64,000 nucleotides of DNA. It comes from Anaeromyxobacteraceae bacterium. GTDB lineage: Bacteria; Myxococcota; Myxococcia; Myxococcales; Anaeromyxobacteraceae. Below are positions 3,209 through 54,263 of the stretch, in pieces (within the stretch, counting starts at the first letter, position 1; each line of letters begins with the position of its first letter). The DNA is taken from positions 49,816 through 113,815 of the forward strand of contig DASRRJ010000018.1 of assembly GCA_035656915.1 (NCBI GenBank). The letters are read 5' to 3'. The position numbers and the translations under genes are program-made. A model generated the notes under the pieces. The model was given only the letters and a program-made list of their open reading frames with translations. It had not been told where the DNA came from and did not search any database.

Positions 3209-4198
3209 TCAGCGCGGGCGGACCTTCATCCCCTTGCACGGGTCCTCGCGCTCGGCGCCCGGGGTGAAGACCACGTAGTCGAAGGGGAGGGCGGCGGCGG
3301 TGTAGTCCTTGGCGTAGGCCTCGGGGGTGCAGCCGTCCTTGAGGACCTCCACCAGGGCCACCGACACCAGCTTCCGCGCCCGGGCCGCCGGCGGCAGGTA
3401 CCACGGGACCCCGCGGTCGGTCCGGACGTGGCCGGTCCCGGCGATGAGGATCACCGGGCGGCTCGCGCCGGCGGTCGACAGGCTCTCGGCCAGCTGGGCG
3501 TCGCGGGCGCGCTGTCCCAGCACCATCGGGTCGAGGAGCGGCTCGGGGAGCTTGCCGCAGTGCGACTCGGCCATCTCCTCGCGCATCTCCCGGAGCGCCT
3601 CCGGCTCCATGGGCGCCTCGACGGCGCGGCGCAGGTCGGGCGAGAGCGCGGCGGGCCCCTTCGTCACCACCTCCTGCACCTCCTTGCGGACCAGGTTGGC
3701 GGCGATGAGCGGCAGGTCCTCCTCCACCGCGGCGGCGAAGATGGGCCGGTAGAGGGCGAAGGCGGGCCAGCCGCTCTTGTCCCACTGCACCGCGGCCCCG
3801 ACGGCGTCGGCGCTGGCCGGCTTCTTCCGGGCCGCGGCGTCGAGGGCCGCCTGCTTGCCGGTGTCGAGCATCTCGAAGGCGATCGCCGGGTGGCGGCCGG
3901 AGGCGGCGGCGGCGCGCACCAGCCTGGCCTGCAGCAGGTGGTGGTCCGGGTTGTCATGGGTCTCGCCGAGCAGCGCGAAGTCGGCGCCAGCCACGGCCGC
4001 GTCGAGAGCGGCCTGGTCGACGAAGCGCGCCTGCTTCACGTCCCAGATCCTGCCCACCAGCGGGTGGTCGCGGTGCCGCTCGCTCTTCCAGTCGAGCGCG
4101 AGCGCGGGGGCGCCGGGGAGCGGCTTGCAGTGCTGCTGCGAGGCGCAGCCGGCGACGAGCGCGGCCGCGAGGGAGAGCGCGAGCGGGAGGGTTCTCAT
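3209..4198 (-). CDS. ChaN-family (haem-binding uptake, Tiki-like) lipoprotein
   Basis: The signal peptide has a lipobox (LVAGC). Conserved LLGETHDNPDHH and GTGH motifs are typical of the ChaN/Cofac_haem_bdg family. 329 aa. Confidence 0.6.
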   Translation of the reverse strand: MRTLPLALSLAAALVAGCASQQHCKPLPGAPALALDWKSERHRDHPLVGRIWDVKQARFVDQAALDAAVAGADFALLGETHDNPDHHLLQARLVRAAAASGRHPAIAFEMLDTGKQAALDAAARKKPASADAVGAAVQWDKSGWPAFALYRPIFAAAVEEDLPLIAANLVRKEVQEVVTKGPAALSPDLRRAVEAPMEPEALREMREEMAESHCGKLPEPLLDPMVLGQRARDAQLAESLSTAGASRPVILIAGTGHVRTDRGVPWYLPPAARARKLVSVALVEVLKDGCTPEAYAKDYTAAALPFDYVVFTPGAEREDPCKGMKVRPR

Positions 4199-4230: not shown

Positions 4231-4380
4231 GTCACCCCCTCCCTGGCCCTCCCCCTTCCAGGGAGAGGGGGAAGAGGCGGGCCGCGCGGCACCACCTCGC
4301 GGAGGCGCAGCGCTGCTCTCCCTCCCCGCCGCGCCGACGGGCCGCGGCGCCGCTCTCCCTCCCCGCCGCGCGGGGAGGGG
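4231..4380. repeat. GC-rich intergenic region with imperfect inverted repeat (CCCCTCCCTGG...CCAGGGAGAGGGG), 20-bp direct repeat (GCTCTCCCTCCCCGCCGCGC x2) and hairpin CCCTCCCCGCcgcgcGGGGAGGG
   Basis: Read in the sequence. It lies between the ChaN-like gene start and the small RG-rich gene end. Confidence 0.6.
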
Positions 4381-4421
4381 CGGCCATGAGGACCGCGCCG
4401 CGCCCCGGCGAAGCCGCTGCG

Positions 4422-4724
4422 CTACTGCGGCCGCTTCGGCCAGGGGGAGGCTTCGCCGCGCTCGTCCACGCGGACCCGCTCGTGGCCAGGGCCGCGCCAG
4501 ACGCTGCCGGCGATGACCCGGCGCGGCAGCCAGGGCCAGCTGGCGCGGGCGGCGTCGGAGGTGAAGACGGCCGGGGAGGGAGGGATCTCGGGCGTGCCGG
4601 TGAGCGGCTCGGACACGGGCGCGGGCGCGCGCGGTCCGCGGTTACGCCGGCGGCCGCGGCGCGAGCCGCCACCGCCGCCGCCGCGCGAGCCGGAAGAAGG
4701 GGAGATGAAGTGCAGGTCGTCCAA
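4422..4724 (-). CDS. Small Arg/Gly-rich hypothetical protein (100 aa), TTG start
   Basis: GC3 is about 88% in this frame, against mixed GC3 in the overlapping + ORF. A perfect AAGGAG Shine-Dalgarno sits 7 nt upstream of the TTG start. The ORF starts 17 nt downstream of the tgt-mnmC-like stop on the same strand. Confidence 0.5.
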   Translation of the reverse strand: MDDLHFISPSSGSRGGGGGGSRRGRRRNRGPRAPAPVSEPLTGTPEIPPSPAVFTSDAARASWPWLPRRVIAGSVWRGPGHERVRVDERGEASPWPKRPQ

Positions 4725-4743
4725 GATGCGTCTCCTTGCGAGG

Positions 4744-6741
4744 CTACTCCGCGCCCGCGGCGAGGGCCGTGGGCGCGGTGAACTGCGGGTGCGCGCGGAT
4801 GAGCTCCAGCGCGTCGGCGGAGGCGTCCGCCGGGAACGGGGAGGAGGAGCGGGCGAGCCGGGCCAGCCAGCGCGCGTCGAGCGGCCGCACCAGATCGTCG
4901 CGCGACGTCGCCGCGGCGGTGGTCTCGGCCTTGGGCCCCGAGGCGTCGCCCGCGCCCACGAAGAACCCGGCCAGGAGGAGCGCGCTCCGCACCGCGGTGG
5001 CGGTGCTGTAGGTGAAGAGGGTCGCGCCGGGCGCGCAGCGCAGGCGGACCGCGCGGAACGCGGCGGCTGTCCAGAGCGCCGGGTTCTGCTTGGGAGAGAA
5101 GGGATCCCAGAAGACGAGATCGGCCCGCGCCGGCTCGCGCGCCAGCGCCTCGAGGGCGTCGCCCTCTACCAGCCTCCAGCCGGCGGCCGCCTCCTGGTGG
5201 CGTCCGGTGGCGAGGATCGCCCGGGCCGCGGCGAGGTCCTCGCCGGAGAGGCCGAGCCGGGCGGCGCCCTCGTCGGAGGTCGCGAGCGAGAGCGCGCCAA
5301 GGTCGCGCTCGAAGCTCACCAGCTCCAGCCGGCGCGCGCCGGGCGGCGCCGCGCGGGCGGCGCGCAAGGCGGCGAGGGCGTTCGAGGCGGCCCCGAGCCC
5401 CACGTCGAAGAGCACCAGGGGAGCGCCGCGCTCCGTGAGGCGGGCCGCGAGGCGCGACTGGGCCACGTAGAGCTGCTCCGACTCGGCGGTGGGGCCGATG
5501 ACCGGGTGCATCACCTCGCCCACCACCCGGTCGCGAACCGCGGCCGCGCCCTCGCTCGTCTGCACGATCTCGAAGCGGTCCGGCGGCGGCGGCACCGGGA
5601 CTCCCGGCTGGCGCCCCTCGGGGTCGTGCTCGTGCCGGTCGATGGCCGCGAGCGTCTCCCGGGCGAAGCGCTCGTAGCGCCCCTCCTCGATGGCGGCGCG
5701 GATGCCGCGCATCAGCTCGAGGTAGTGGTGCAGGTTGTGGACGGCGAGCAGCCGCGGCCCGAGCGGCTCCTTGCACTTCATGAGGTGGTGCAGGTAGCCG
5801 CGCGGGTGGGCGCGGCAGGTGGGACAGGCGCAGACGGGGTCGAGCGGCTCCTGCGAGAGCCGGTGATCGCCGCGGGTGAGCCGCACCCGGCCGGTGGAGG
5901 TGAAGGCGGTGCCCTGCCACGCCATGACGGTGGGGATGACGCAGTCGAACATGTCCACGCCGTGCGCGACCATCTCCAGGATGTCGGGCGGGGTGCCCAC
6001 GCCCATCAGGTAGCGCGGCCGGTCCTCCGGGAGCAGCTCCGCCGCGCGGGCCACCACCTCCGAACGTTGGGCGCGGGTGTCGCCGACGGCGAGCCCCCCG
6101 ATGGCGAAGCCATCGAAGGGGTGCTGGGTGAGGAAGCGCGCCGACTCGGTCCGGAGCTCGGGCGAGAGGCCGCCCTGGACGATGGCGAAGAGGGCCTGCT
6201 CCGGGTCCTGCCGCGCGGCGAGGCTGCGCAGCGCCCAGCGGTGGGTGCGCTCCATCGCCTCGCGGATGGCGCTCGGCTCGGCGGTGGAGGGGAGGCAGAT
6301 GTCGAGCACCATCATCACGTCGGAGCCGAGCGCGGTCTGCACCTCGATCGACCGCTCCGGGGAGAGGTGGTGGTAGCGGCAGTCGACGTAGCTCTTGAAG
6401 CGCGCCCCCTCCTCGGTGATGGTCCGGTCCTTCGCGAGCGAGAAGATCTGGAAGCCGCCCGAGTCGGTGAGGATGGGCCGGTCCCAGCCCATGAAGCGGT
6501 GCAGGCCACCGAAGTGGCGCATCGCCTCTGGACCGGGCCGCAGCAGCAGGTGGTAGGTGTTGCCGAGGACGATCTCGGCGCCGAGGCCGCGCAGGTCCTC
6601 GGGCGTGAGGCCGGTGACGGTGGCGCGGGTCCCGACCGGCATGAAGGCCGGGGTCTCCACCCGCCCGTGGGGGGTGGTGAAGGCGCCGCGCCGCGCGCGG
6701 GTCCCCACGTCGCGGGGGCCTGGGTGGAAGCGGAAAGGCAT
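4744..6741 (-). CDS. tgt: Queuine tRNA-ribosyltransferase (Tgt) fused in-frame to an MnmC-like (DUF752) SAM methyltransferase domain
   Basis: The ORF was trimmed to Met140 (ATG at 6741; MPFRFHPGPRDVGTRARRGAFTTPHGRVETPAFMPVGT...). It has the Tgt motifs LTDSGGFQIF, AIVQGGL and the C-terminal Zn site CxCxxC...H. There is no stop before a roughly 280-aa C-terminal extension with DLVFWDPFSPKQNPALWT, which is typical of the MnmC N-terminal methyltransferase domain. 665 aa in total. Confidence 0.75.
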   Translation of the reverse strand: MPFRFHPGPRDVGTRARRGAFTTPHGRVETPAFMPVGTRATVTGLTPEDLRGLGAEIVLGNTYHLLLRPGPEAMRHFGGLHRFMGWDRPILTDSGGFQIFSLAKDRTITEEGARFKSYVDCRYHHLSPERSIEVQTALGSDVMMVLDICLPSTAEPSAIREAMERTHRWALRSLAARQDPEQALFAIVQGGLSPELRTESARFLTQHPFDGFAIGGLAVGDTRAQRSEVVARAAELLPEDRPRYLMGVGTPPDILEMVAHGVDMFDCVIPTVMAWQGTAFTSTGRVRLTRGDHRLSQEPLDPVCACPTCRAHPRGYLHHLMKCKEPLGPRLLAVHNLHHYLELMRGIRAAIEEGRYERFARETLAAIDRHEHDPEGRQPGVPVPPPPDRFEIVQTSEGAAAVRDRVVGEVMHPVIGPTAESEQLYVAQSRLAARLTERGAPLVLFDVGLGAASNALAALRAARAAPPGARRLELVSFERDLGALSLATSDEGAARLGLSGEDLAAARAILATGRHQEAAAGWRLVEGDALEALAREPARADLVFWDPFSPKQNPALWTAAAFRAVRLRCAPGATLFTYSTATAVRSALLLAGFFVGAGDASGPKAETTAAATSRDDLVRPLDARWLARLARSSSPFPADASADALELIRAHPQFTAPTALAAGAE

Positions 6742-7632: not shown

Positions 7633-8229
7633 TCAGTCGAGCAGCCCCTGCTCCCTCGCCAGTCTTGCCAGCCGTTCCTTCAGCCGCTCGAAGCGCTTGG
7701 AGACCGCGTCGGGGGTCGGCGCGCTCCCCTCGGCGGCGACGACGCCGGCGATCTCGGCCCAGGAGAGCTGCTGGTCGAGCCGCAGCGTGAGGAGCGACTG
7801 GTCCTCGGCGGAGAGGCTGGCGCGCAGGCTGGCGAGGGCGTCGCGCTGCCGCTCCACGCGGATCGCCGTGCCGGTGCGGACCTCCTCGGCGAGGGCCGAG
7901 GCCTCGCCGGTGGCGAAGGGGCGCGCCCGTCGGCGCCAGGCCTCGTCGCGCAGGTTGAGCGCGGCGTCCCAGGCGATGCGGTAGGCCCAGGTGCGAAGCC
8001 CGGCCTCGCCGCGGAAGCGGGGCAGCCCCTTCCACAGGTTCTCGGCGAACTGCGAGAAGGCGTCGCGCGCGTCGGCCTCCTCGCGCAGCACCGCGCGCAG
8101 ATAGCGCAGGATCTGGGGACCGAGCGCGCGGATGGCCGCGGTGGCCGCGCCCTCCCCGTCCCCGGCGCCGAGGAGCGCTCGCACCCGCGCCTCCAGCGTC
8201 TCCAGCTCGCCCGGCCCGGCGTCGCTCAC
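7633..8229 (-). CDS. ECF-type RNA polymerase sigma-70 factor
   Basis: Sigma-70 region 2 (ILRYLRAVLREEADARDAFSQFAENLWKGLPRFRGEAGLRTWAYRIAWDAALNLRDE) and region 4 (LSAEDQSLLTLRLDQQLSWAEIAGVV) are present. The start was set at a GTG (VSDAGPGELE...) that overlaps the upstream kinase stop as GTGA. The longer ORF start would overlap the kinase extensively. Confidence 0.75.
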   Translation of the reverse strand: MSDAGPGELETLEARVRALLGAGDGEGAATAAIRALGPQILRYLRAVLREEADARDAFSQFAENLWKGLPRFRGEAGLRTWAYRIAWDAALNLRDEAWRRRARPFATGEASALAEEVRTGTAIRVERQRDALASLRASLSAEDQSLLTLRLDQQLSWAEIAGVVAAEGSAPTPDAVSKRFERLKERLARLAREQGLLD

Positions 8230-11171
8230 CGCGCCGGCTCCTGCGGACCGAGCCGCCGCCGCAGCGCCTTCACCTCGGCCAGGTAGGGGGCGTCGGCATC
8301 GGCGCGCGCCCAGAGGCGGAGGAGGTGGTCCGCCGCCTCCCGGGCCCCGTGGCGCTCTCCCAGGCGCTCCCGGGCCAGCGCCTCCAGGTAGAAGCTCCGG
8401 GGGTACATCCAGCTGCGCGCCACGCCGCCCGGCACCCGCCGGAACCGCTCGAGCGCGGCGGCCGCCTCCGCGTCCCGTCCGCTCGCGAGGGCCCACTCGC
8501 CCAGGAGCCAGAGCGCCGGCCCGCGCACGTCGAGGCTGGGGCGCTCCGCGAGGGCCCGCACCGAGCCCAGCGCCGCGGCCCGCTCGCCGCGCCGCCACGC
8601 CGCCGCCGCGTCGAAGAGCTGCCGGCCCTCGCCGGGCGGGAGCTCCGCCGCCGCGGCCTTCGCCTCCTCGGCGGCGCCGCTGAGCTCGAGCGCCAGCGGC
8701 AGGCCGCCCCAGTGCGGCTTCGGCGCCTTCCAGAGCCGGAGCGCCTCGGCGCGAGCCGCGTCCTGCGAGCGGTCGCCGAGCAGAAAGGCCAGGCGCTGCG
8801 CGGAATGCTCGGGGGTCATGGGCAGCTCCCGCGGCAGGCCGTCGAGGGCGCGCTGCGCCTCGCGCAGCCGCCCCTGGTAGGAGAGCTGGTTCGCGAGCAG
8901 ATAGAGCCCCTTGATCCGCTCCAGCCCCTGGCCGCGCTCCGCCGACGGGCGGACCAGGGCCTCGGCCTCGGGGTAGCGCTCGGCGAGGGCCAGCGCGTCC
9001 GCCAGCGCGGCGCGGGAGTGATGGCCGCCGTCGAGCTCCAGCGCGCGGCGGTCGTCGGCGACGGCGTCCTCCATCCGACCCGCGGCCTCGGCCCCCTGCG
9101 CGCGGGCGCGCCAGGCGGCGGCGCTCGCGGGCGCCTGCTCCACCCAGCGCCGGCTGCGCGCCTCCAGCTCGGCGCCGCGGCCCATCGAGAAGAGGCTGTC
9201 CATCAGGTGGAGCAGCGCCGGTTCCCAGGTGGGGTCGAGCGCCAGGGCCCGCTCGAAGAGCGGCAGCGCCTCCTCGGTCCGGCCCTCGTGGAAATAGAGG
9301 TCGGCCGCCATGTAGAGGGCGTCCTTGTCCTGCGGGTAGGCGGCGACGGCCTGTGCGTAGAGCCCGTGCGCCTCCTCGTTGCGCCCGTCCATGTGCGCCT
9401 TCCAGGCGCGGATGAGGAGCCGCTCCTTCTCCGGCGCCCGCTGCGCGTCACGCAGCGCCTCCTCGATCTCCGCCTTGCGGGTGGCGGCGTCGAGCCCGGT
9501 GAACTCCCCCAGGTAGGCGATCTGGTAATGGGCGAGGCTGAAGGAGGGGTCGGCCGCGATGGCGCGCCGGAACCCGGCGAGCGCCTCCTCGTACCGGGTG
9601 GCGTCCATGGCCTGCTCGCCGTGGAAGTAGGCAGAGTAGGCCTCGAAGCTGCCGGTGGTGGCGGCGGCCACCTGCACCCGCGAGGCCTTCACCTCGGCCG
9701 GCGTCTCGCGCAAGAGCGTGCGGGTCCGCTCCGAGAGCCGGTCGATCATGCCGGGGACGCTCGCCTTGCCGCGCCCCTCCTCCTTGAGCGTGAAGAGGTA
9801 CTCGCTCGTGTCGGGGTCGAGCGCCTTGAGCTCGATGGCGTAGAGCTGGTCGAAGCGGTGGATGGTGGCGAGCACCAGGGCCCGCGCCCCGGCGCTGCGG
9901 GCCACCTCCCGGCCGAGCGGCTCGTCCACCCCGCCCGCGCTCTCCTTCCCGAGCTGGCGGAGGAGGTCGAGCATGCGCACGCGGGTGAGCACCGCGAGGC
10001 GGCGCGACTGCTCGAGGGAGGTGATGAGCATGCCGGAGAGGCCCGACAGCTCCGGGTCGCCGGTCTGGTTCACGAAGTCGGCGACCGCCACGGTGATCCG
10101 CTCGGACGGCACCGCCGCCAGCTCCCGAGGGGGGGCGACGCCGCGGCGATAGGCCAGCCCCAGCGCGAGGCCGGCGACGAGCAGGAGCGCCAGGGCCACG
10201 GGCCACCACCGGGCGAGCCTCCGGTGGGCTCGCACCGGGCCGCCGGGGGCGGGCGGGGTGCGCTCGAGCTCGCCGCGGAAGGCGGCCAGCGCCGCCGCCA
10301 CGTCGCCGGCGTCGCGGGGGCGGTGCACCGGGTCCTTCGAGAGCATGCGGGCGATGAGGGTGCCCACCGCGGGGACGCCGGGCACCTCGAGCGCCGGCGG
10401 CGCCCGCACCCTGCTGGCCGCCTTGCCGCGATCGCCCTCGGGGAAGGGGAGCCGCCCCGAGAGCAGCCGGTAGAGCATGACCCCCAGCGCGAAGACGTCG
10501 GTGCGCTCGTCCTCCGGTGCCCCGCGCCACTGCTCCGGGGCCATGTAGGCCGGGGTGCCGCCGTCCACCCGTCGCCGGCCGAAGGCGTGGGCGAGGCCGA
10601 AGTCGAGCACCTTCACCTGCCCGTCGGGGCAGAGGAAGACGTTGCCCGGCGTGAGGTCGCGGTGGACCACGCCCTGCCGGTGGGCGCAGGCGAGCCCCTC
10701 CGCGACCGCGTGGGCGATCCGCAGCGCCTCGGCGATCCCGAGCTCCCCCTGCCCGAGGCGCGCGGAGAGCGTCTGACCGCGCAGGAGCTCGAGCACCAGG
10801 TAGGGCCCGGCCTCGCAGCGCCCGACGTCGTAGAGGGTGACGATGTTGGGGTGGGAGAGGCGCGCCGCCGCCTCGGCCTCGCGCAGGAGCTGCTCGTCGA
10901 CCGTGCCGCGGTCGGTGCTCGCGCGCACCGCCTTGAAGGCGACCCCGCGGCCGAGCTCGGTGTCGCGCGCCTCCCAGACCTGGCCGAAGCCGCCACGGCC
11001 GAGCTCCGAGAGGAGCTCGAACCGGCCGACGATCGCCCCGGGCCGGAGCACCTCGTCCCAGGCCGAGCCGCGCGCTCCCTCGGGGAGGCGCGCCAGCTCG
11101 TCCAGGATGGATGACAGCCCTTCGGGCACGCGGGCCTCCGTCGGAAGCACCGCGTAGCCTAACCGGGGCAC
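8226..11171 (-). CDS. Ser/Thr protein kinase with TM segment and C-terminal TPR repeats
   Basis: The Hanks kinase motifs are present: GRGGFGQVW, AFK, HRDLTPGNV, DFGLA and APE. A single TM follows (WWPVALALLLVAGLALGLAY), then roughly 600 aa of TPR-like repeats. The exact start is uncertain (GTG at 11171 is followed by a rare TTA codon). Confidence 0.85.
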   Translation of the reverse strand: MPRLGYAVLPTEARVPEGLSSILDELARLPEGARGSAWDEVLRPGAIVGRFELLSELGRGGFGQVWEARDTELGRGVAFKAVRASTDRGTVDEQLLREAEAAARLSHPNIVTLYDVGRCEAGPYLVLELLRGQTLSARLGQGELGIAEALRIAHAVAEGLACAHRQGVVHRDLTPGNVFLCPDGQVKVLDFGLAHAFGRRRVDGGTPAYMAPEQWRGAPEDERTDVFALGVMLYRLLSGRLPFPEGDRGKAASRVRAPPALEVPGVPAVGTLIARMLSKDPVHRPRDAGDVAAALAAFRGELERTPPAPGGPVRAHRRLARWWPVALALLLVAGLALGLAYRRGVAPPRELAAVPSERITVAVADFVNQTGDPELSGLSGMLITSLEQSRRLAVLTRVRMLDLLRQLGKESAGGVDEPLGREVARSAGARALVLATIHRFDQLYAIELKALDPDTSEYLFTLKEEGRGKASVPGMIDRLSERTRTLLRETPAEVKASRVQVAAATTGSFEAYSAYFHGEQAMDATRYEEALAGFRRAIAADPSFSLAHYQIAYLGEFTGLDAATRKAEIEEALRDAQRAPEKERLLIRAWKAHMDGRNEEAHGLYAQAVAAYPQDKDALYMAADLYFHEGRTEEALPLFERALALDPTWEPALLHLMDSLFSMGRGAELEARSRRWVEQAPASAAAWRARAQGAEAAGRMEDAVADDRRALELDGGHHSRAALADALALAERYPEAEALVRPSAERGQGLERIKGLYLLANQLSYQGRLREAQRALDGLPRELPMTPEHSAQRLAFLLGDRSQDAARAEALRLWKAPKPHWGGLPLALELSGAAEEAKAAAAELPPGEGRQLFDAAAAWRRGERAAALGSVRALAERPSLDVRGPALWLLGEWALASGRDAEAAAALERFRRVPGGVARSWMYPRSFYLEALARERLGERHGAREAADHLLRLWARADADAPYLAEVKALRRRLGPQEPAR

Positions 11172-11199: not shown

Positions 11200-14100
11200 C
11201 TAGAGGAGGCCCGGCTTCCCCTGCTTCCAGCGCTCGAGCTCGGTGGTGAGCAGGGCGACGTGCTCCTGCTCCTCCGCTGCGAGCTCCTTGTAGAGCTCGC
11301 GGGCGGCCGAGCCGGCCGGAGCCTTCTCGACGTTCTCGGTGAAGAACTTCACCGCGCGCTGCTCGAAGAGGATGGCGATCTGGAACAGGCTCGCCGGGTC
11401 CTCCGGGCGGTGGTCGAGGCCGGCGAAGATGGCCGCGGTGCCGATGCGGAAGCCCGCCGAGGGGGGCGGGACCTCCACGTGGTAGCGCCGCTGCAGCGTC
11501 GCCATGTGCTCGGTCTCCATCCCCGCGAACTTGCCGAACAGCTCGCGCAGCACCGGGTCGGACGCCTCCTTGGCCGCCTTCGTGTAGAAGGCCATGCCGC
11601 CGAGCTCGATCTCGAAGGCCACCCGCACGGCGTCGAGGGCGGCGCCCTCGACCTTGCGGTCGTCGAGCGGCGCGAGCTTGCCCTCGCCGCAGATCGGGCA
11701 GAGGCCGTACGGGAAGGCGAAGCCCTCGCTCACCTTGGCGCACTTCTCACAGCGCCAGGACACCTGCGCGGTGGCGCAGCAGATGTACTCCTCGTCGCCC
11801 TCGAGGGGGCGGTGGCACTTCGGACAGGTGCGCACGGGCTCCTCCAGCGCTCCGGCGAGCGCGGTCGCGCCGGCCGGCGCGGGCTTCACCTGGACGGGCG
11901 GCTGGAAGGCCGCCGCCTCCTCGGCGGTGACCGGCCAGCTCTTCTTGCCCTCCTTGAGCCAGGCGGCGATGGAGCGCGCGGCGCGGCGGCCGGCGCCCAT
12001 GGCCAGGATCACGGTGGCGCCGCCGGTCACGATGTCGCCGCCGGCGAAGACGCCGGGCAGGCTGGTGGCCTGGGTGGACTGCGGCTTGCCGTCGTCGGCG
12101 GCGATGTTGCCCCACTTGTTGAGCGCGAGGCCGGGGGTGGACTCGGTGACGATGGGGTTCGCCTTGGTGCCGAGGGCCGAGATGACCGTGTCGCACTCGA
12201 GCGTGTGGAACTCGCCCGTGCCGACCGGCTTGCGGCGCCCCTTCTCGTCGGGCTCGCCGAGCACCATGCGCTCCACCTTCATGCCGGTGACGTTGCCGTC
12301 GTCGTCGGCCAGGATGGCGATGGGGCCGTGGAGGAAGAAGAACTCGATCCCCTCCTCCTTGGCGTGCCGGATCTCCTCGATGCGGGCCGGGGCCTCGGCC
12401 TCGGAGCGGCGGTAGACGCAGCGCACCGTCGGGGCGCCGAGCCGCTTCGCCACGCGCAGGCAGTCCATGGCGGTGTTGCCGGCGCCGATCACCACCACGC
12501 TCTTGCCGAGGCGGATGGGGGTGTCGAGGTAGGGGAACTTGTCCCCGCCCATGAGGTTCACGCGGGTGAGGAACTCGTTGGCGCTGTAGACCTGGCCCGC
12601 GTTCTCGCCGGGGATGCCGAGGAAGGCCGGGGCTCCGGCGCCGACGCCGAGGAACACCGCGTCGTAGCCCTTCTCCTCGAGGAGCTGCGGGACGGTGAAG
12701 GTCTTGCCGATGACCTTGTTGGTCTCGATCTTCACGCCCGAGTCGCGCAGCTGCTTCACCTCGCGGGCGATGATGTCGCGCGGGAGGCGGAAGGACGGGA
12801 TGCCGTACTGGAGCACGCCGCCCACCACGTGGAGCGCCTCGTAGACCGTGACGTCACAGCCGAACTTCACGAGATCGGCGGCGGCGGCCAGGCCGGCCGG
12901 GCCGGAGCCGCAGATGGCGACCCTGCCGAGCCGGTCCTGCGCCCGGAACACCGGCGGGGAAGCCTTGGGCATGGCGGCGTTGTCGCCCACGAACCGCTCC
13001 AGGCGGCCGATGCCCACCGACTCCATCTTCTTGTTGATGATGCACTGCGACTCGCACTGCGTCTCCTGCGGGCAGACGCGGCCGCAGACCGACGGGAAGG
13101 CGTTCGACTCGCGGATCACCGCGGCGGCGCCGTCGATGTCGCGCACCAGCAGGTGGCGGATGAAGCGCGGGATGTCGATCGACACCGGGCAGCCGGCCAC
13201 GCAGGTGGGCTTCGCGCACTGGATGCAGCGCTCCGCCTCGCCGAGGGCGTCCTGGAGCGAGTAGCCCAGGTTCACCTCCTTGAAGTTGCGGGCGCGCTCG
13301 TAGGCGTCGCGCTCCGGCATGTGCGCCTGCTTGGGCGCGAGCTCCTTCAGCTTCTTGTAGTTGCGCTTCTCGTCCTCGAAGAGCTGCTTCTCGAGGTTGC
13401 AGACGTGCGCGTAGTCCTGGTTGGCGGCCGCCTCCTGCTCCTTGAAGCGGCGCTGGCGGGCGATGAGCTCCTTGAAGTCCACCTTGTGGCCGTCGAAGTC
13501 AGGGCCCTCGACGCAGGCGAACTTGACCTTGCCGTCCACGGTGACGCGGCAGGAGCCGCACATGCCGGTGCCGTCCACCATGATGGCGTTGAGGCTCACC
13601 ATGGTCTTCACGCCGAAGGGGCGGGTGGTCTCGACGCAGGCGTTCATCATCGGCAGCGGGCCGATGGCGACGACCAGGTCGGGCTTGTCCTTCTCGCAGA
13701 TCTCCTTGAGCGCCTGGGTGACGAAGCCGGGCTTGCCGTAGCTGCCGTCGTCGGTGCAGACCACCAGGTCGTCGCAGTGCTTCTTGAACTTGTCCTCCCA
13801 GAACACCAGGTCCTTGTTGCGGAACCCGATGACGCCGGTGGTGCGGCAGCCGGCCTCCTTGAAGGCGCGCAGCTGCGGGTAGACCGGGGCGACGCCGAGG
13901 CCGCCGCCGACGAGCACCACGTGGCCGAGCTTGCCGACGTGCTGGGGCAGCCCGAGCGGACCCACGAAGTCGGCGAACTCGTCGCCTTCCGCGTAGTTGG
14001 TCATCATCTCGCGGGTCGTCTTGCCGAGCGCCTGGATCACCATGGTGATGGTGCCCTTCTCCCGGTCGAAGTCGGCGACGGTGAGCGGGATGCGCTCGGA

Positions 14101-14223
14101 GCCGTCGTGCAGACGCAGCATCACGAAGTGCCCGGGCTGGGCGGCGCGGGCGACGTCGGGGGCGTCGACTTCCCAGAGGAAGGTGGTGTCGGAGAAGGCT
14201 TGGCGGCGGACGATCCTGGTCAT
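11200..14223 (-). CDS. Multidomain oxidoreductase: NfnA/SudB-like FNR module + NfnB/GltD-like FAD/NAD(P) + 2x[4Fe-4S] module + Zn-ribbon + rubrerythrin/ferritin-like diiron domain
   Basis: The ORF was trimmed to Met30 (ATG at 14223, GAGGA about 10 nt upstream; MTRIVRRQAFSDTTFLWEVDAPDVA matches the sulfide dehydrogenase/NfnA N-terminus). The FAD/[2Fe-2S] part ends with CGSCRV...C. Ferredoxin-type CxxCxxC...CP motifs follow, then Rossmann GSGPAGLAAA and GAGNTAMD motifs typical of GltD. The C-terminus has CPKCH...CEKC and CPICGEG zinc ribbons. Paired E..EH motifs (FAGMETEHMA, ELAAEEQEHVALL) are diagnostic of a rubrerythrin-like four-helix diiron domain. Confidence 0.75.
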   Translation of the reverse strand: MTRIVRRQAFSDTTFLWEVDAPDVARAAQPGHFVMLRLHDGSERIPLTVADFDREKGTITMVIQALGKTTREMMTNYAEGDEFADFVGPLGLPQHVGKLGHVVLVGGGLGVAPVYPQLRAFKEAGCRTTGVIGFRNKDLVFWEDKFKKHCDDLVVCTDDGSYGKPGFVTQALKEICEKDKPDLVVAIGPLPMMNACVETTRPFGVKTMVSLNAIMVDGTGMCGSCRVTVDGKVKFACVEGPDFDGHKVDFKELIARQRRFKEQEAAANQDYAHVCNLEKQLFEDEKRNYKKLKELAPKQAHMPERDAYERARNFKEVNLGYSLQDALGEAERCIQCAKPTCVAGCPVSIDIPRFIRHLLVRDIDGAAAVIRESNAFPSVCGRVCPQETQCESQCIINKKMESVGIGRLERFVGDNAAMPKASPPVFRAQDRLGRVAICGSGPAGLAAAADLVKFGCDVTVYEALHVVGGVLQYGIPSFRLPRDIIAREVKQLRDSGVKIETNKVIGKTFTVPQLLEEKGYDAVFLGVGAGAPAFLGIPGENAGQVYSANEFLTRVNLMGGDKFPYLDTPIRLGKSVVVIGAGNTAMDCLRVAKRLGAPTVRCVYRRSEAEAPARIEEIRHAKEEGIEFFFLHGPIAILADDDGNVTGMKVERMVLGEPDEKGRRKPVGTGEFHTLECDTVISALGTKANPIVTESTPGLALNKWGNIAADDGKPQSTQATSLPGVFAGGDIVTGGATVILAMGAGRRAARSIAAWLKEGKKSWPVTAEEAAAFQPPVQVKPAPAGATALAGALEEPVRTCPKCHRPLEGDEEYICCATAQVSWRCEKCAKVSEGFAFPYGLCPICGEGKLAPLDDRKVEGAALDAVRVAFEIELGGMAFYTKAAKEASDPVLRELFGKFAGMETEHMATLQRRYHVEVPPPSAGFRIGTAAIFAGLDHRPEDPASLFQIAILFEQRAVKFFTENVEKAPAGSAARELYKELAAEEQEHVALLTTELERWKQGKPGLL

Positions 14224-14375
14224 TGTTCTAGGGTCCTCGCAGTAGCCCCGAAACGGTCCAATTCCCGCTCGGGGTGAACCTTCGTACGCGAACACGCCGG
14301 CTGTGGTCAAATGGGCGTAAACTGGACGGGAAAGGTCCGGTTAGAGACCCGCGATTTCACTCCGAGCGGGAGCGG

Positions 14376-17365: not shown

Positions 17366-18688
17366 CTAGTGGCGCCGGCGGCGGCGCCGTCGGTGCGACG
17401 GCGGAGCGCCCTCCGCCCCGGGCTCCTTCGGCTGAGCCGTGCTGGGTCGCCGCTCGCCGGGGGCGAGAGGGTGCGCGGACGCGGGCGCGGCCGGGAGGCG
17501 CGTGACGTAGGTGACGACCGGGCCGGTCGGCTCGCGGCGGGGGGGATGGCGCGGGGCGGTCGCGCCTCCCCGGCCGTTACCACGCGATGGGGCTGCTGGA
17601 GGTGGCGGGCGGCGCGAGGGCTGCGAAGCGGGCGCGCCGCCCCGGACCTGTTCGGGCGGCCGGGAGGGCGTGGCCGCTGGGGGCGGCGTGTGGTGCGGCG
17701 GCGGGTGCGGCTTGGTGGCCCCTCCCCGGCCCTCCCCACGCGGTGGGGAGGGAGTGACGGCGCGCTGCTGGCCACGCTGCCCGTGCTTTTCGCCGCGCGC
17801 GCGCTGCTCGCCCCTCGGCTCCTGGCGCTGACCGCGCTGTTCGCGCTGCTCGCCCCTCGGCTCCTGCCGCTGACCGCGTTGTTCGCGTTGCTCGCCCCTC
17901 GGCTCCTGCCGCTGACCGCGCCCGCCCCGATGCTGCGGCTCCGGCGCCGGCCTTCCGCTGGGCACGAAGTCGGGGGTGAGCTCGCGGCGCACGTAGGCGC
18001 GCCAGATCTCGCGGGCGTCGCCGTTGGCGGCCTGCACGGCCGGGTCGAGCGGCGCGAAGAAGCGGCGGAGGGTCTCGAGGTCGCGCTCGAAGAAGCGTTC
18101 GGCCTGGCTGTTGTGCGCCGCGCCCACCACCTGCGGGAAGTCGATGATGGTCGGGCCGTTCCAGGCCATCAGCACGTTGTAGGGCGAGAGGTCGCCGTGG
18201 ATGAGGTCGCAGGCGAGCATCCGCACCACCTGCTGGCGCAGGTCGGCGTAGTGCTCGGCGGCGCGCTCGCGCGGGAGGACGGCGTCCACGAGCCGGGGCG
18301 CGGCGTGCCCGTCGGCGTCCACCACCGCCTCCATGAGCAGCACCCCTTCGTAGAACATCACCGGCCGCGGCACGCGCACCCCGGCGGCGTGGAGTGAGTA
18401 GAGCGCCTCCGATTCCTTGGCCTTCCAGGCCTCCTCGGCGGCGCGCTGGCCGAAGCGGCTGCCGCGGACCATGGCCCGCTGGGTGCGGCTGTCGCGCACC
18501 TGCCGCCCCTCCTTGTAGGCCGCGTTGTTGTGGAAGCTTCGCGCGTGGAGGTCCTTGTAGACCTTGGCGGCCACCACCTCGCCGGCGTGCTGCACCAGCC
18601 AGATGTCGGCTTCCTTGCCGCTCTTGAGGCGCGCGACGACCGCTTCGATGACGCCGTCGGCGAGGAGTTGCTGGAGAGGATCGGACAT
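17366..18688 (-). CDS. RIO-type atypical Ser protein kinase with long low-complexity Arg/Pro/Gly/Gln C-terminal tail
   Basis: The ORF was trimmed to Met21 (ATG at 18688). It has a GKEADIWLV nucleotide-binding region, LIHGDLSPYNVLM (catalytic loop) and IIDFPQ (metal-binding DFxQ), which are hallmarks of RIO kinases. The C-terminal 190 aa contain (QEPRGEQREQRGQR)x3, encoded by a 42-bp tandem repeat. Confidence 0.75.
   Translation of the reverse strand: MSDPLQQLLADGVIEAVVARLKSGKEADIWLVQHAGEVVAAKVYKDLHARSFHNNAAYKEGRQVRDSRTQRAMVRGSRFGQRAAEEAWKAKESEALYSLHAAGVRVPRPVMFYEGVLLMEAVVDADGHAAPRLVDAVLPRERAAEHYADLRQQVVRMLACDLIHGDLSPYNVLMAWNGPTIIDFPQVVGAAHNSQAERFFERDLETLRRFFAPLDPAVQAANGDAREIWRAYVRRELTPDFVPSGRPAPEPQHRGGRGQRQEPRGEQREQRGQRQEPRGEQREQRGQRQEPRGEQRARGEKHGQRGQQRAVTPSPPRGEGRGGATKPHPPPHHTPPPAATPSRPPEQVRGGAPASQPSRRPPPPAAPSRGNGRGGATAPRHPPRREPTGPVVTYVTRLPAAPASAHPLAPGERRPSTAQPKEPGAEGAPPSHRRRRRRRH
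17803..17923. repeat. 42-bp tandem repeat, about 2.8 copies (gctgctcgcccctcggctcctg[g/c]cgctgaccgcg[c/t]tgttcgc), inside the RIO kinase 3' region
   Basis: Read directly in the sequence. Copy 2 differs from copy 1 at 2 positions and copy 3 is truncated. On the minus strand it encodes the 14-aa repeat QEPRGEQREQRGQR. Confidence 0.85.
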
Positions 18689-18841
18689 GGTCTTGGCCCG
18701 CGCGGGGGCGGGAGGCGAAGGACTAGAGGACCGCTCGGGCCGGGTCAAGGGCGCTGCGGCGCCCCTTCGCGAGCGCTCCCCGTCAGGCGGGTGGCCGATC
18801 GCGTGGCCGGGTGGGAGCTTTGGCTACAGGGAGGTGGAAAA

Positions 18842-52432: not shown

Positions 52433-52553
52433 GCGCGCCGTAGCAGATGGCGGGGGCGCAGGTGACGCCCGCTCGCGCGGTCGCCCGCGGGGCAGGGGGG
52501 CGAAGGTGCGATTCGGGCCCGCACCCCCGGGCCGCGGAGAAGGTGAGTAACGT

Positions 52554-54263
52554 GTGAGCGTGCGCTACCACGCGCTCGCCACGGACTACGACGGCACGCT
52601 GGCGACTGCCGCGCGGGTCGGCGCGGAGACCGTCGCAGCCCTGACCCGGCTGCGCGCCTCCGGTCGCCGCCTCGTGCTCGTGACCGGCCGCATCTTCTCC
52701 GACCTGGCGCAGGTCTTTCCCGAGCACGCGCTGTTCGACGTCGTCGTCGCCGAGAACGGCGGGGTCTCCTGCCGGCCTGGCGCGGCCGAGCGCCTCCTGG
52801 CCGAGGCGCCTTCGCCTGCGCTGGCGAAGGCCCTGCGGGCGCGCGGCGTCCCGTTCGATCAGGGGCGGGTCGTCATCGCCACCCGCGAGCCGCACGACGT
52901 GACGGTGCTGGAGGTCATCCGGGAGCTCGGCCTCGAGCTCGACGTGATCTTCAACAAGGGCGCGGTGATGGTGCTGCCCTCCGGCGTGAACAAGCGCACC
53001 GGGCTCGAGGCCGCCCTGGCGGAGCTTGGGCTCACGGCGCACGAGGTGGTGGCCCTCGGGGACGCCGAGAACGACCACACACTCCTGGCGGGCGCGGAGC
53101 TGGGCGTGGCGGTGGAGAACGCGCTGCCCGCGCTGAAGGAGCGCGCCGACCTGGTCACCCGCGGCGCCAGCGGCGCGGGCGTCGAGGAGGTGATCGCAGG
53201 GTTGTTGGCCGACGACCTCGCCGGCCTGGATCCGCCCCGCCACCGCGTGGCCCTGGGCGAAGGCGCCGCGGGCGCGCTCTCCGTCTCGCCCGCCGGCACG
53301 AGGCTGCTGGTCGCCGGCACCTCCGGCAGCGGCAAGAGCACGTTCGCGAGCGGCGTGCTGGAGAAGCTCGTGGAGAAGGGGTACCAGGTCTGCCTGGTGG
53401 ACCCGGAGGGCGACTTCGAGGGCTTCCAGGGCCTGACGCCGCTCGGCTCCGCGGAGCGGACCCCCTCGGTCGAGGAGGTGGTGGCGCTGCTCGCGGAGCC
53501 GGGCATCAGCCCGGCGGTGAGCCTGCTGGGGCTGCCGCTGCGCGACCGCCCGCGCTTCCTGACCGAGCTCTGGCCCAAGCTGCAGCAGCTCCGCGCCAGG
53601 TCCGGGCGCCCGCACTGGCTGGTGGTGGACGAGGCGCACCACATGTTCCCGCGCGCGTTCGACTCGAGCGCCGCGCTGCCCCGCGACCCGGGCGGCCTGC
53701 TGCTCGTCACAGTCCACCCCGACCGGCTCGAGCCCGAGGTGCTGCGGACGGTGAACGCCGCGGTGGCGGTGGGGGAGGGCGCGGCGGCGACGCTCTCCGC
53801 CTTCTTTCGCTCTGCCGGGCTGCCCGGAGGCGGCCCCGCGGAGACGCAAGCGCCCGAGCAGGCGCTCCTGTGGACCGCCCGTTCCGGCGAGACCGTCGCC
53901 TTCCGCCCTGCCCAGCCTCGCGCGGCGCACCAGCGCCACCGGCGGAAGTACGCCTCCGGCGACGTGCACGAGAAGGCGTTCCGGTTCCGGGGGCCAGACG
54001 GCCGCCTCGACCTGCGGGCGCAGAACCTCGAGCTCTTTCTCCAGCTCGCAGACGGGGTGGACGACGAGACCTGGCGCTTCCACCTCGAGAACGGGGACTA
54101 CTCGCGCTGGTTCCGTGAGGCCATCAAGGACGAGGAGCTGGCGCGCGACGCCGCGGAGGTGGAGCGCTCGGCCGGCGGCGACCCACGGGACACCCGCAAG
54201 CGCCTGCGCGAGGCGGTGGAGCGGCGCTACGTCGTGGAGGACGCGGGGGCGGTCGCGCGCTGA
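52554..54263 (+). CDS. Fusion protein: HAD-IIB (Cof/SPP-like) phosphatase domain + HerA/DUF87-like P-loop ATPase domain
   Basis: The GTG start has GGAGAAGGTGAG upstream. The HAD motifs are I LATDYDGTLA, II LVLVTGR and IV GDAENDHTLL. After about 270 aa come Walker A (VAGTSGSGKST), a VDPEGDFEGF box and Walker B (HWLVVDEAHHMF), reminiscent of HerA/FtsK/DUF87 ATPases. Confidence 0.7.
   Translation: MSVRYHALATDYDGTLATAARVGAETVAALTRLRASGRRLVLVTGRIFSDLAQVFPEHALFDVVVAENGGVSCRPGAAERLLAEAPSPALAKALRARGVPFDQGRVVIATREPHDVTVLEVIRELGLELDVIFNKGAVMVLPSGVNKRTGLEAALAELGLTAHEVVALGDAENDHTLLAGAELGVAVENALPALKERADLVTRGASGAGVEEVIAGLLADDLAGLDPPRHRVALGEGAAGALSVSPAGTRLLVAGTSGSGKSTFASGVLEKLVEKGYQVCLVDPEGDFEGFQGLTPLGSAERTPSVEEVVALLAEPGISPAVSLLGLPLRDRPRFLTELWPKLQQLRARSGRPHWLVVDEAHHMFPRAFDSSAALPRDPGGLLLVTVHPDRLEPEVLRTVNAAVAVGEGAAATLSAFFRSAGLPGGGPAETQAPEQALLWTARSGETVAFRPAQPRAAHQRHRRKYASGDVHEKAFRFRGPDGRLDLRAQNLELFLQLADGVDDETWRFHLENGDYSRWFREAIKDEELARDAAEVERSAGGDPRDTRKRLREAVERRYVVEDAGAVAR

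Follow-up and report, generated by a model that had tools for sequence, protein, structure and literature searches.

In a 64,000-nucleotide stretch of DNA from an Anaeromyxobacteraceae bacterium (GenBank assembly GCA_035656915.1, contig DASRRJ010000018.1, positions 49,816 to 113,815 of the forward strand; hereafter the window, with a GC content of 74%) we found a single gene that joins two enzymes of the tRNA wobble position. The N-terminal half of the encoded protein is a complete bacterial tRNA-guanine(34) transglycosylase (Tgt), an enzyme of the queuosine pathway. The C-terminal half is, judged by its sequence relatives, closest to the Aquifex-type MnmC2 subfamily of N-methyltransferases that depend on S-adenosylmethionine (SAM). 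The fusion is real and not an artefact. Both halves carry intact catalytic motifs and are conserved across the orthologues, the linkage of the two genes recurs in several lineages and the route towards the fusion can be followed in related genomes. The two halves probably act independently of each other, each as an ordinary wobble enzyme, on a flexible proline-rich tether.

A sequence-only reading of the window had described a complete Tgt fused in frame to an MnmC-like DUF752 domain, with no stop codon between the two, and on both points it proved correct. The domains lie in a single open reading frame (ORF) of 665 amino acids (aa) with Pfam and NCBIfam matches to each (Table 1), and the start methionine is the same in all 48 aligned orthologues of the fusion. 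The GC content at third codon positions (GC3) in the fusion frame stayed between 0.88 and 1.00 in every run of 40 codons from residue 1 to residue 665, linker included, and collapsed only upstream of the ATG. This unbroken single-frame periodicity shows that there is neither a stop nor a frameshift between the Tgt and methyltransferase domains. The best 120 database matches to the whole protein were all 620-728 aa long and all contained both domains. More than 120 orthologous fusions were found in total, including those of six cultured Anaeromyxobacter (A. paludicola with 85% identity, A. oryzae, A. soli, A. diazotrophicus, A. oryzisoli and Anaeromyxobacter sp. Fw109-5), with complete genomes among them. 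One JGI protein (P0279) was 100% identical to the fusion protein of the window. We also fetched 80 genome loci with the methyltransferase part as query, and at 26 Anaeromyxobacter or Anaeromyxobacteraceae loci both domains shared one open frame.

Four loci of close Anaeromyxobacter relatives (L012, L021, L032 and L067) carried tgt and the methyltransferase in different frames, which could be taken as a sign that the fusion itself is an assembly or frameshift artefact. However, all four belong to one series of metagenome-assembled genomes (MAGs; MFD* assemblies), and in L012, L032 and L067 the frame changes fall inside conserved domains, with two such changes in L067. This points to assembly indels or pseudogenes and not to a real fission of the gene. 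The unbroken GC3 signal, the more than 120 orthologous fusions and the genomes of cultured strains rule out a sequencing error or frameshift as the origin of the fusion.

The Tgt half matched the equivalog model TIGR00430 (NCBIfam) over residues 14-369 with 453.5 bits compared to a cutoff of 306.75. It is ~47% identical to the Tgt structures of Zymomonas mobilis and Thermotoga maritima, and ~47-49% identical to bacterial Tgt when the E. coli enzyme is included. The AlphaFold model superimposed on the Tgt entries of the Protein Data Bank (PDB) with a target-normalised template modelling (TM) score of 0.92 and a root-mean-square deviation of 2.1 Å, and thus has the TIM-barrel fold of Tgt. The catalytic residues D93, D147/C149 and D266 (Z. 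mobilis D102, D156/C158 and the nucleophile D280) were invariant in the 48 orthologues. The zinc site CxCxxC...H, already recognised in the sequence-only reading, is formed by C304, C306, C309 and H335. C149 and V219 of the preQ1-type pocket (Z. mobilis C158 and V233; preQ1 is 7-aminomethyl-7-deazaguanine) are kept within LDIC and GGLAVG. The protein has the catalytic Asp, the zinc site, the Cys and Val of the pocket and the fold in common with known bacterial Tgts. It differs from them by the extra C-terminal extension of ~290 aa and, at a third pocket position, by an Asp in place of Glu235. A Foldseek search with the whole model returned Tgt structures for all of the top 50 matches and so was uninformative for the methyltransferase half.

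In Z. mobilis Tgt the recognition of the preQ1 aminomethyl group is governed by Glu235, and the T. maritima structure likewise has a Glu there. We considered whether the Asp at this position (Asp221, GGLAVGD and not GGLAVGE) signals a change of substrate that came with the fusion and rejected this, as other fused or adjacent Tgts keep the Glu. The Asp occurs throughout Anaeromyxobacter and the main Myxococcota Tgt clade and is, from this distribution, a lineage trait unrelated to the fusion.

For the C-terminal half the sole Pfam match was Methyltransf_30 (PF05430), which covered residues 520-611 (92 aa) at E=2e-20 and 73 bits (cutoff 22). The methyltransferase part as a whole is longer and consists of a full MnmC2 domain, starting at residue ~390, and a family-specific C-terminal module that extends to residue ~655. 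Its size is ~265 aa. The only sequence relatives in the PDB were Aquifex MnmC2 (3vyw) and the MnmC proteins of E. coli and Yersinia. The single sequence of the window domain matched 3vyw at E=4e-15. A profile of the 39-member family matched 3vyw at E=4.5e-35 over positions 6-229 of 277, nearly all of the catalytic domain, and E. coli MnmC at 2e-18. The alignment to the Aquifex protein takes in the N-terminal G-E-x-[MY]-H...G...E element. The domain matched MnmC and MnmC2 families and structures only, and no unrelated family of SAM-dependent methyltransferases gave a better alignment. The MnmC signature DLVFWDPFSPKQNPALWT on which the domain had first been recognised is present and holds the catalytic motif IV (D546-P-F548), the Asp of which is invariant across the 39-member family. 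The C-terminal module is predicted to be helical and is kept in fused, adjacent and standalone members, with a mean identity of 66% among the orthologues. No DAO/MnmC1 oxidase domain was found with Pfam or NCBIfam; the models NF002480 and NF002481 matched the methyltransferase part only and remained far under their cutoffs.

Two characterised relatives help to interpret this half. The DUF752 protein of Aquifex methylates tRNA that contains 5-aminomethyluridine (nm5U) in vitro, and Aquifex tRNA contains 5-methylaminomethyl-2-thiouridine (mnm5s2U) without the carboxymethylaminomethyl form (cmnm5s2U), in an organism that has MnmE, MnmG and MnmA and no MnmC1 (PMC3527978). The protein works by the ammonium route without the MnmC1 oxidase. 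It has motif I, the D-x-F motif IV, the KNP.LW segment and the N-terminal GE.[MY]HS element in common with the window domain. The Aquifex protein is free-standing and 308 aa long, whereas the window domain, which is known here from its sequence, is tethered to Tgt and carries a distinct conserved C-terminal module. The second relative is E. coli MnmC (MnmC2-MnmC1; 3awi, 3ps9), which has a homologous methyltransferase domain with the same catalytic Asp (D178). This Asp of motif IV has been proposed to act as the catalytic base, and the substitution D178A severely lowers the methyltransferase activity of the E. coli enzyme (PMC3527978). E. coli MnmC is likewise an MnmC2 fused to a second wobble-modification enzyme, and its two activities are separable. 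However, its partner is an oxidase of the same pathway that depends on flavin adenine dinucleotide (FAD) and follows the methyltransferase, whereas here the partner is Tgt, which belongs to another pathway and precedes the methyltransferase.

The two halves are joined by a linker that varied from 13 to 88 aa across the 48 orthologues. The mean identity was 32% in the linker compared to 81% in the Tgt half and 72% in the methyltransferase domain. Together with the invariant SAM-binding and catalytic residues, this difference indicates that the methyltransferase domain is under purifying selection. The AlphaFold model had a mean predicted local distance difference test score (pLDDT) of 85 and a predicted TM score of 0.60. 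The pLDDT was ~90 in the methyltransferase domain and dropped below 50 at residues 379-386 within the linker. The model thus predicts two well-folded halves without a confidently fixed mutual orientation.

Table 1. Features of the fusion gene and protein, with positions in the window.
Feature	Residues	Position	Strand	Basis and remarks
Tgt-MnmC2 fusion, complete coding sequence	665 aa	4744..6741	minus	ORF and translation; ATG at 6741, TAG at 4744-4746
Tgt domain, bacterial tRNA-guanine(34) transglycosylase	15-366	5644..6699	minus	PF01702 (E=1.4e-148); TIGR00430
Asp at the Z. mobilis Glu235 position	Asp221	6079..6081	minus	alignment to solved Tgts
Tgt zinc-site cysteines	C304-x-C306-x-x-C309	5815..5832	minus	aligned to Z. 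mobilis C318/C320/C323/H349; invariant in 48 orthologues
Tgt fourth zinc ligand	H335	5737-5739	minus	aligned to Z. mobilis H349; invariant in 48 orthologues
Inter-domain linker, PEGRQPGVPVPPPPD	374-388	5578..5622	minus	Pro/Ala/Gly/Arg-rich
MnmC2/DUF752-type class I SAM-dependent N-methyltransferase domain	390-612	4906..5574	minus	PF05430, NCBIfam MnmC2, PDB relatives
SAM-binding motif I, followed by N454	D446-V-G-L-G450	5392..5406	minus	D, G, G and N invariant in the 39-member family alignment and in 48 orthologues
Catalytic motif IV (D-x-F of MnmC2)	D546-P-F548	5098..5106	minus	aligns to Aquifex D193-A-F195 and E. coli D178/F180
Family-specific C-terminal module, PL..RWL.RL.RSS.PFP.D...HPQF	613-655	4777..4905	minus	family alignment

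The methyltransferase part was searched exhaustively against 1.84 billion cluster representatives, which gave 256 clusters at E<=1e-30, most of them free-standing proteins of 270-300 aa. At the genome loci the gene was encountered in three states. It is fused to tgt in the Anaeromyxobacteraceae. In 13 Myxococcota loci outside Anaeromyxobacter it is a separate gene with tgt immediately upstream. In Bdellovibrionota, Oligoflexia, some Myxococcales, Pedosphaera, an Akkermansia-like MAG and others it is free-standing, with no tgt within ~6 kb. At four loci (L013, L029, L038 and L042) the tgt stop and the methyltransferase start overlap by 4 nucleotides (ATGA/GTGA). This is the classic translationally coupled arrangement, and one small indel would turn such a pair into a fusion.

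The architecture with an N-terminal Tgt and a C-terminal MnmC2 was also found in P0121, P0158, P0173, P0208 and P0252. The last four, full-length fusions that fall into other 50%-identity clusters, are only 43-52% identical overall to those of Anaeromyxobacter. P0158 groups with adjacent-gene loci, and its relative P0142 has a separate tgt ~100 bp upstream. P0208 comes from an organism of 48% GC, unrelated to that of the window with its 74%, and its nearest relative (P0264) is demonstrably not beside tgt. P0173 has neighbours of the Planctomycetota/Verrucomicrobiota type and belongs to the same methyltransferase family as the window protein. P0192 was considered as an unfused sister of P0173 and is not usable, as its frame is open to the contig edge. 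In a tree of the methyltransferase domain all fusions formed one group in 0/200 bootstraps, and the Anaeromyxobacter fusions together with P0158 did so in 0/200 as well. The tree is crude, as it was built by neighbour-joining only and genomic context is lacking for many of its leaves. On this tree at least three independent fusion or fission events would still be needed. Because the fusions never group together in it, the Anaeromyxobacter fusion appears to have arisen independently, from two overlapping genes.

Three further members of the methyltransferase family, P0143 (504 aa), P0170 (490 aa) and P0236 (505 aa), have N-terminal extensions of ~230 aa that are not Tgt. In P0143 the extension has an AMIN domain, a strange companion for a tRNA enzyme, and those of P0170 and P0236 matched no recognisable family. 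They may represent genuine fusions, or the genes, which lie in high-GC DNA, may have been called too long.

The architecture itself is on record. A survey released as a preprint in 2023 lists proteins of 680-696 aa with Tgt and MnmC2 in three Verrucomicrobia/Opitutae (WP_046298500.1, WP_069963108.1 and WP_096055212.1; bioRxiv 10.1101/2023.12.21.572861 Data S3). They are the only COG4121 members in their genomes and were listed without follow-up (bioRxiv 10.1101/2023.12.21.572861). Compared by this listing and not by sequence alignment, they have the same two domains in the same order and a similar length, in a different phylum. We found no other mention of such fusions in the literature searched. 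The architecture is thus a catalogued but never characterised fusion type, of which the Anaeromyxobacter member is new and, on the evidence of the tree, independently evolved. The sequence-only reading had called the fusion unusual; it is indeed rare, but it is not new and the linkage recurs in several lineages. The same survey lists a single 'MnmC2 only' protein of 251-283 aa for each of the Myxococcus, Cystobacter and Archangium rows as well as for Bdellovibrio, Bacteriovorax and Halobacteriovorax (Data S3). Its genomes were chosen for the presence of MnmA, MnmE and MnmG, and Anaeromyxobacter is outside that set. In these related genomes the single protein is therefore the only candidate for the terminal methylation. 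The zeros given for Myxococcales in Data S4 were read, with the column headers unchecked, as absence of YtqA/MnmL (bioRxiv 10.1101/2023.12.21.572861).

We favour the view that the fusion protein combines two ordinary and independent activities, and consider it reasonably likely. This view rests on the kinship to the Aquifex enzyme, the invariant motifs, the sole MnmC homologue in related genomes, the disordered and variable linker and the lack of any convergent change at the active site. With regard to the last point, a comparison of Tgt-linked and unlinked methyltransferases gave only one separating column, a Leu/Phe difference at residue 486, away from the motifs. The Tgt half would exchange G34 for preQ1 in the tRNAs with GUN anticodons (Asp, Asn, His and Tyr). 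The MnmC2 half would transfer a methyl group from SAM to the amino group of 5-aminomethyl-(2-thio)uridine-34, giving mnm5(s2)U34 in the tRNAs that decode NAR codons (Lys, Glu, Gln and others). The substrate nm5(s2)U34 would be supplied by MnmE and MnmG through the ammonium route, so that no MnmC1 oxidase would be needed. The fusion itself probably arose in the ancestor of the Anaeromyxobacteraceae from a coupled tgt-mnmC2 pair, as still present in other Myxococcota, through loss of the 4-nucleotide stop/start overlap.

Within the split boxes, NAY codons are read by tRNAs with queuosine (Q) and NAR codons by those with mnm5s2U, and the two sets of tRNAs have the anticodon loop U33-N34-U35 in common. 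With these boxes and this loop shared, an equal co-expression of the two modifications that set the discrimination between NAY and NAR may be advantageous, and this would be the selective reason for the fusion. In this sense the recurrent coupling of Q and mnm5U enzymes suggests a selection for co-expressing the wobble modifications of the split NAN boxes (His/Gln, Asn/Lys, Asp/Glu and Tyr/stop).

Several observations weigh against two ordinary activities. The MnmC2 model NF033855 aligned to residues 407-610 with 85 bits, under its cutoff of 136. Ten other members of the clade, fused or free, reached 51-94 bits compared to the same cutoff, and their NCBI name is only 'MnmC family methyltransferase'. 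A tblastn search of 939 kb of loci for QueA, MnmA, MnmE and MnmG, with E. coli sequences as queries, gave one weak match to an MnmE-like GTPase only, and no que or mnm genes were found among the ~40 window genes annotated with Pfam. The two halves would act on different tRNAs, so that the fusion would offer no obvious kinetic benefit. Finally, the link to tgt in several unrelated lineages exceeds chance adjacency and is the classic signature of enzymes in one pathway.

One alternative is that the methyltransferase acts on some other amine, in a tRNA or rRNA nucleotide or in a small molecule, and that the link to tgt reflects co-regulation only. The scores below the equivalog cutoff fit this alternative, as does the conserved C-terminal module that lies outside the match to Aquifex MnmC2; some members also carry other N-terminal additions, such as the AMIN domain of P0143. 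However, the whole catalytic core, with its N-terminal G-E-x-[MY]-H...G...E element, aligns to the Aquifex enzyme, the searches matched no other family or structure, and the phyletic pattern fits the mnm5 pathway (bioRxiv 10.1101/2023.12.21.572861). We therefore regard another amine substrate as unlikely.

The second alternative couples the two halves in one reaction sequence and is the one that the sequence-only reading had put forward, in the form of a methylated queuosine precursor in place of mnm5U. Once the Tgt half has placed preQ1 at position 34, the domain tethered to it would add a methyl group to the aminomethyl nitrogen of this base, or to the secondary amine of Q. The tRNAs for Asp, Asn, His and Tyr would then carry 7-(methylaminomethyl)-7-deazaguanosine or, following QueA, N-methyl-queuosine. 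Chemically the idea is attractive. The chemistry of MnmC2 is the N-methylation of the aminomethyl group of a wobble base (PMC3527978), and preQ1 bears the same group at the same position of the tRNA. In many Myxococcota the two genes show translational coupling. Fusions of the two exist in no fewer than three separate lineages (Anaeromyxobacteraceae, the P0158 group and the 48%-GC P0208) in addition to the Opitutae, and a recurrent fusion usually means one pathway. The position of the family under the NCBI cutoff for MnmC2 also counts in its favour. Moreover, N-methyl-preQ1 is a natural compound, known so far only as a deoxynucleoside of phage DNA (PMC10516641). There it is made by DpdM (DUF3109), an N-methyltransferase of dPreQ1 whose product, 7-(methylamino)methyl-7-deazaguanine, is the one foreseen here. 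However, DpdM acts on DNA with the transglycosylase DpdA, binds metal and has a fold unrelated to the Rossmann-type MnmC2 (PMC10516641).

Against this stands first of all the closeness of the family to the validated nm5U methyltransferase of Aquifex. An N-methylation of preQ1 would also consume the amine on which QueA acts, so that the two would be in competition. In Bdellovibrionota and many further genomes the orthologues lie away from tgt, and a reassignment of the family would strip the related genomes with MnmA, MnmE and MnmG of their terminal methyltransferase. The independent Tgt-linked lineages show no common residue change near the active site, the linker is of variable length, and no fixed geometry between the domains is predicted. 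Fusion alone is weak evidence, as MnmC2 is also fused to the apparently unrelated partners MqnD and YhdJ (bioRxiv 10.1101/2023.12.21.572861). Methylated preQ1 or Q in tRNA was not found in the searchable literature. We found no support for the methylation of a queuosine precursor and judge it quite improbable. If true, it would constitute a new tRNA modification, a derivative of 7-deazaguanosine, the MnmC2 fold would gain a new class of substrate, and the repeated coupling and fusion to tgt would be explained.

That the C-terminal domain is decayed, inactive or a mere tRNA-binding appendage of Tgt, or that the fusion is an artefact, is very improbable given the invariant SAM-binding and catalytic residues and the contrast in identity between domain and linker, and the artefact part of this reading is effectively refuted by the fused sequences described above.

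Under any reading of its function the fusion affects annotation. The NCBI name of the Anaeromyxobacter fusions of 650-730 aa is just 'tRNA guanosine(34) transglycosylase Tgt', so that the whole methyltransferase domain stays hidden. Conversely, JGI uses the label 'queuine tRNA-ribosyltransferase' for proteins or fragments of 245-283 aa that consist of the methyltransferase only (PF05430 only), a name apparently carried over from the fusion. Examples of such annotation problems among the database matches are P0003, P0018, P0034, P0280 and P0365. Censuses of the mnm5U pathway that rely on names will thus miss the methyltransferase domain in Anaeromyxobacter.

Apart from tgt we detected no conserved third partner when all ORFs within 5 kb were clustered across the 80 loci. 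No riboswitch, such as one for preQ1, was found in the window at the Rfam gathering threshold, and for queA or Q in Anaeromyxobacter, Myxococcota or Verrucomicrobia the literature search gave nothing usable. One fusion (P0271) has a DAO-family neighbour (L081, 6494-7870, minus strand), a divergent FAD-dependent oxidoreductase with DAO/amine-oxidase Pfam matches. It was considered as an MnmC1 and rejected: in NCBIfam it gave weak matches of the HpnE/phytoene-desaturase type only and no MnmC signal.

In the window the next gene past the stop of the fusion is ChaN-like (3209-4198), and a GC-rich gap of ~500 bp (4232-4743) separates the two. The gap holds an ORF of 100 aa (4422-4724, minus strand) with an RGG-rich stretch. 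Neither a Pfam match nor tblastx similarity to any of 88 loci was found for this ORF or the gap, and the element is either lineage-specific or non-coding.

Some other genes of the window are noticeable in their own right. A protein of 1046 aa (11203-14340, minus strand) combines an NAD-binding/DHODB Fe-S module, Fer4_20, a GltD-like Pyr_redox_2 domain and C-terminal rubrerythrin/ferritin-like domains, an unusual combination for a redox protein. A frame of 570 aa (52551-54260, plus strand) starts with a phosphatase of the HAD type (Hydrolase_3/S6PP), behind which lies a weak P-loop match that is HerA/DUF87-like; this could be a genuine fusion, or stop-to-stop extraction could have merged two genes. 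A TPR-linked Ser/Thr kinase (8229-11171) adjoins a sigma factor of the extracytoplasmic function type (7636-8598). Finally, an atypical protein kinase domain of the RIO1 type was found at 17369-18823 (minus strand, E=1e-36) in this bacterial genome.

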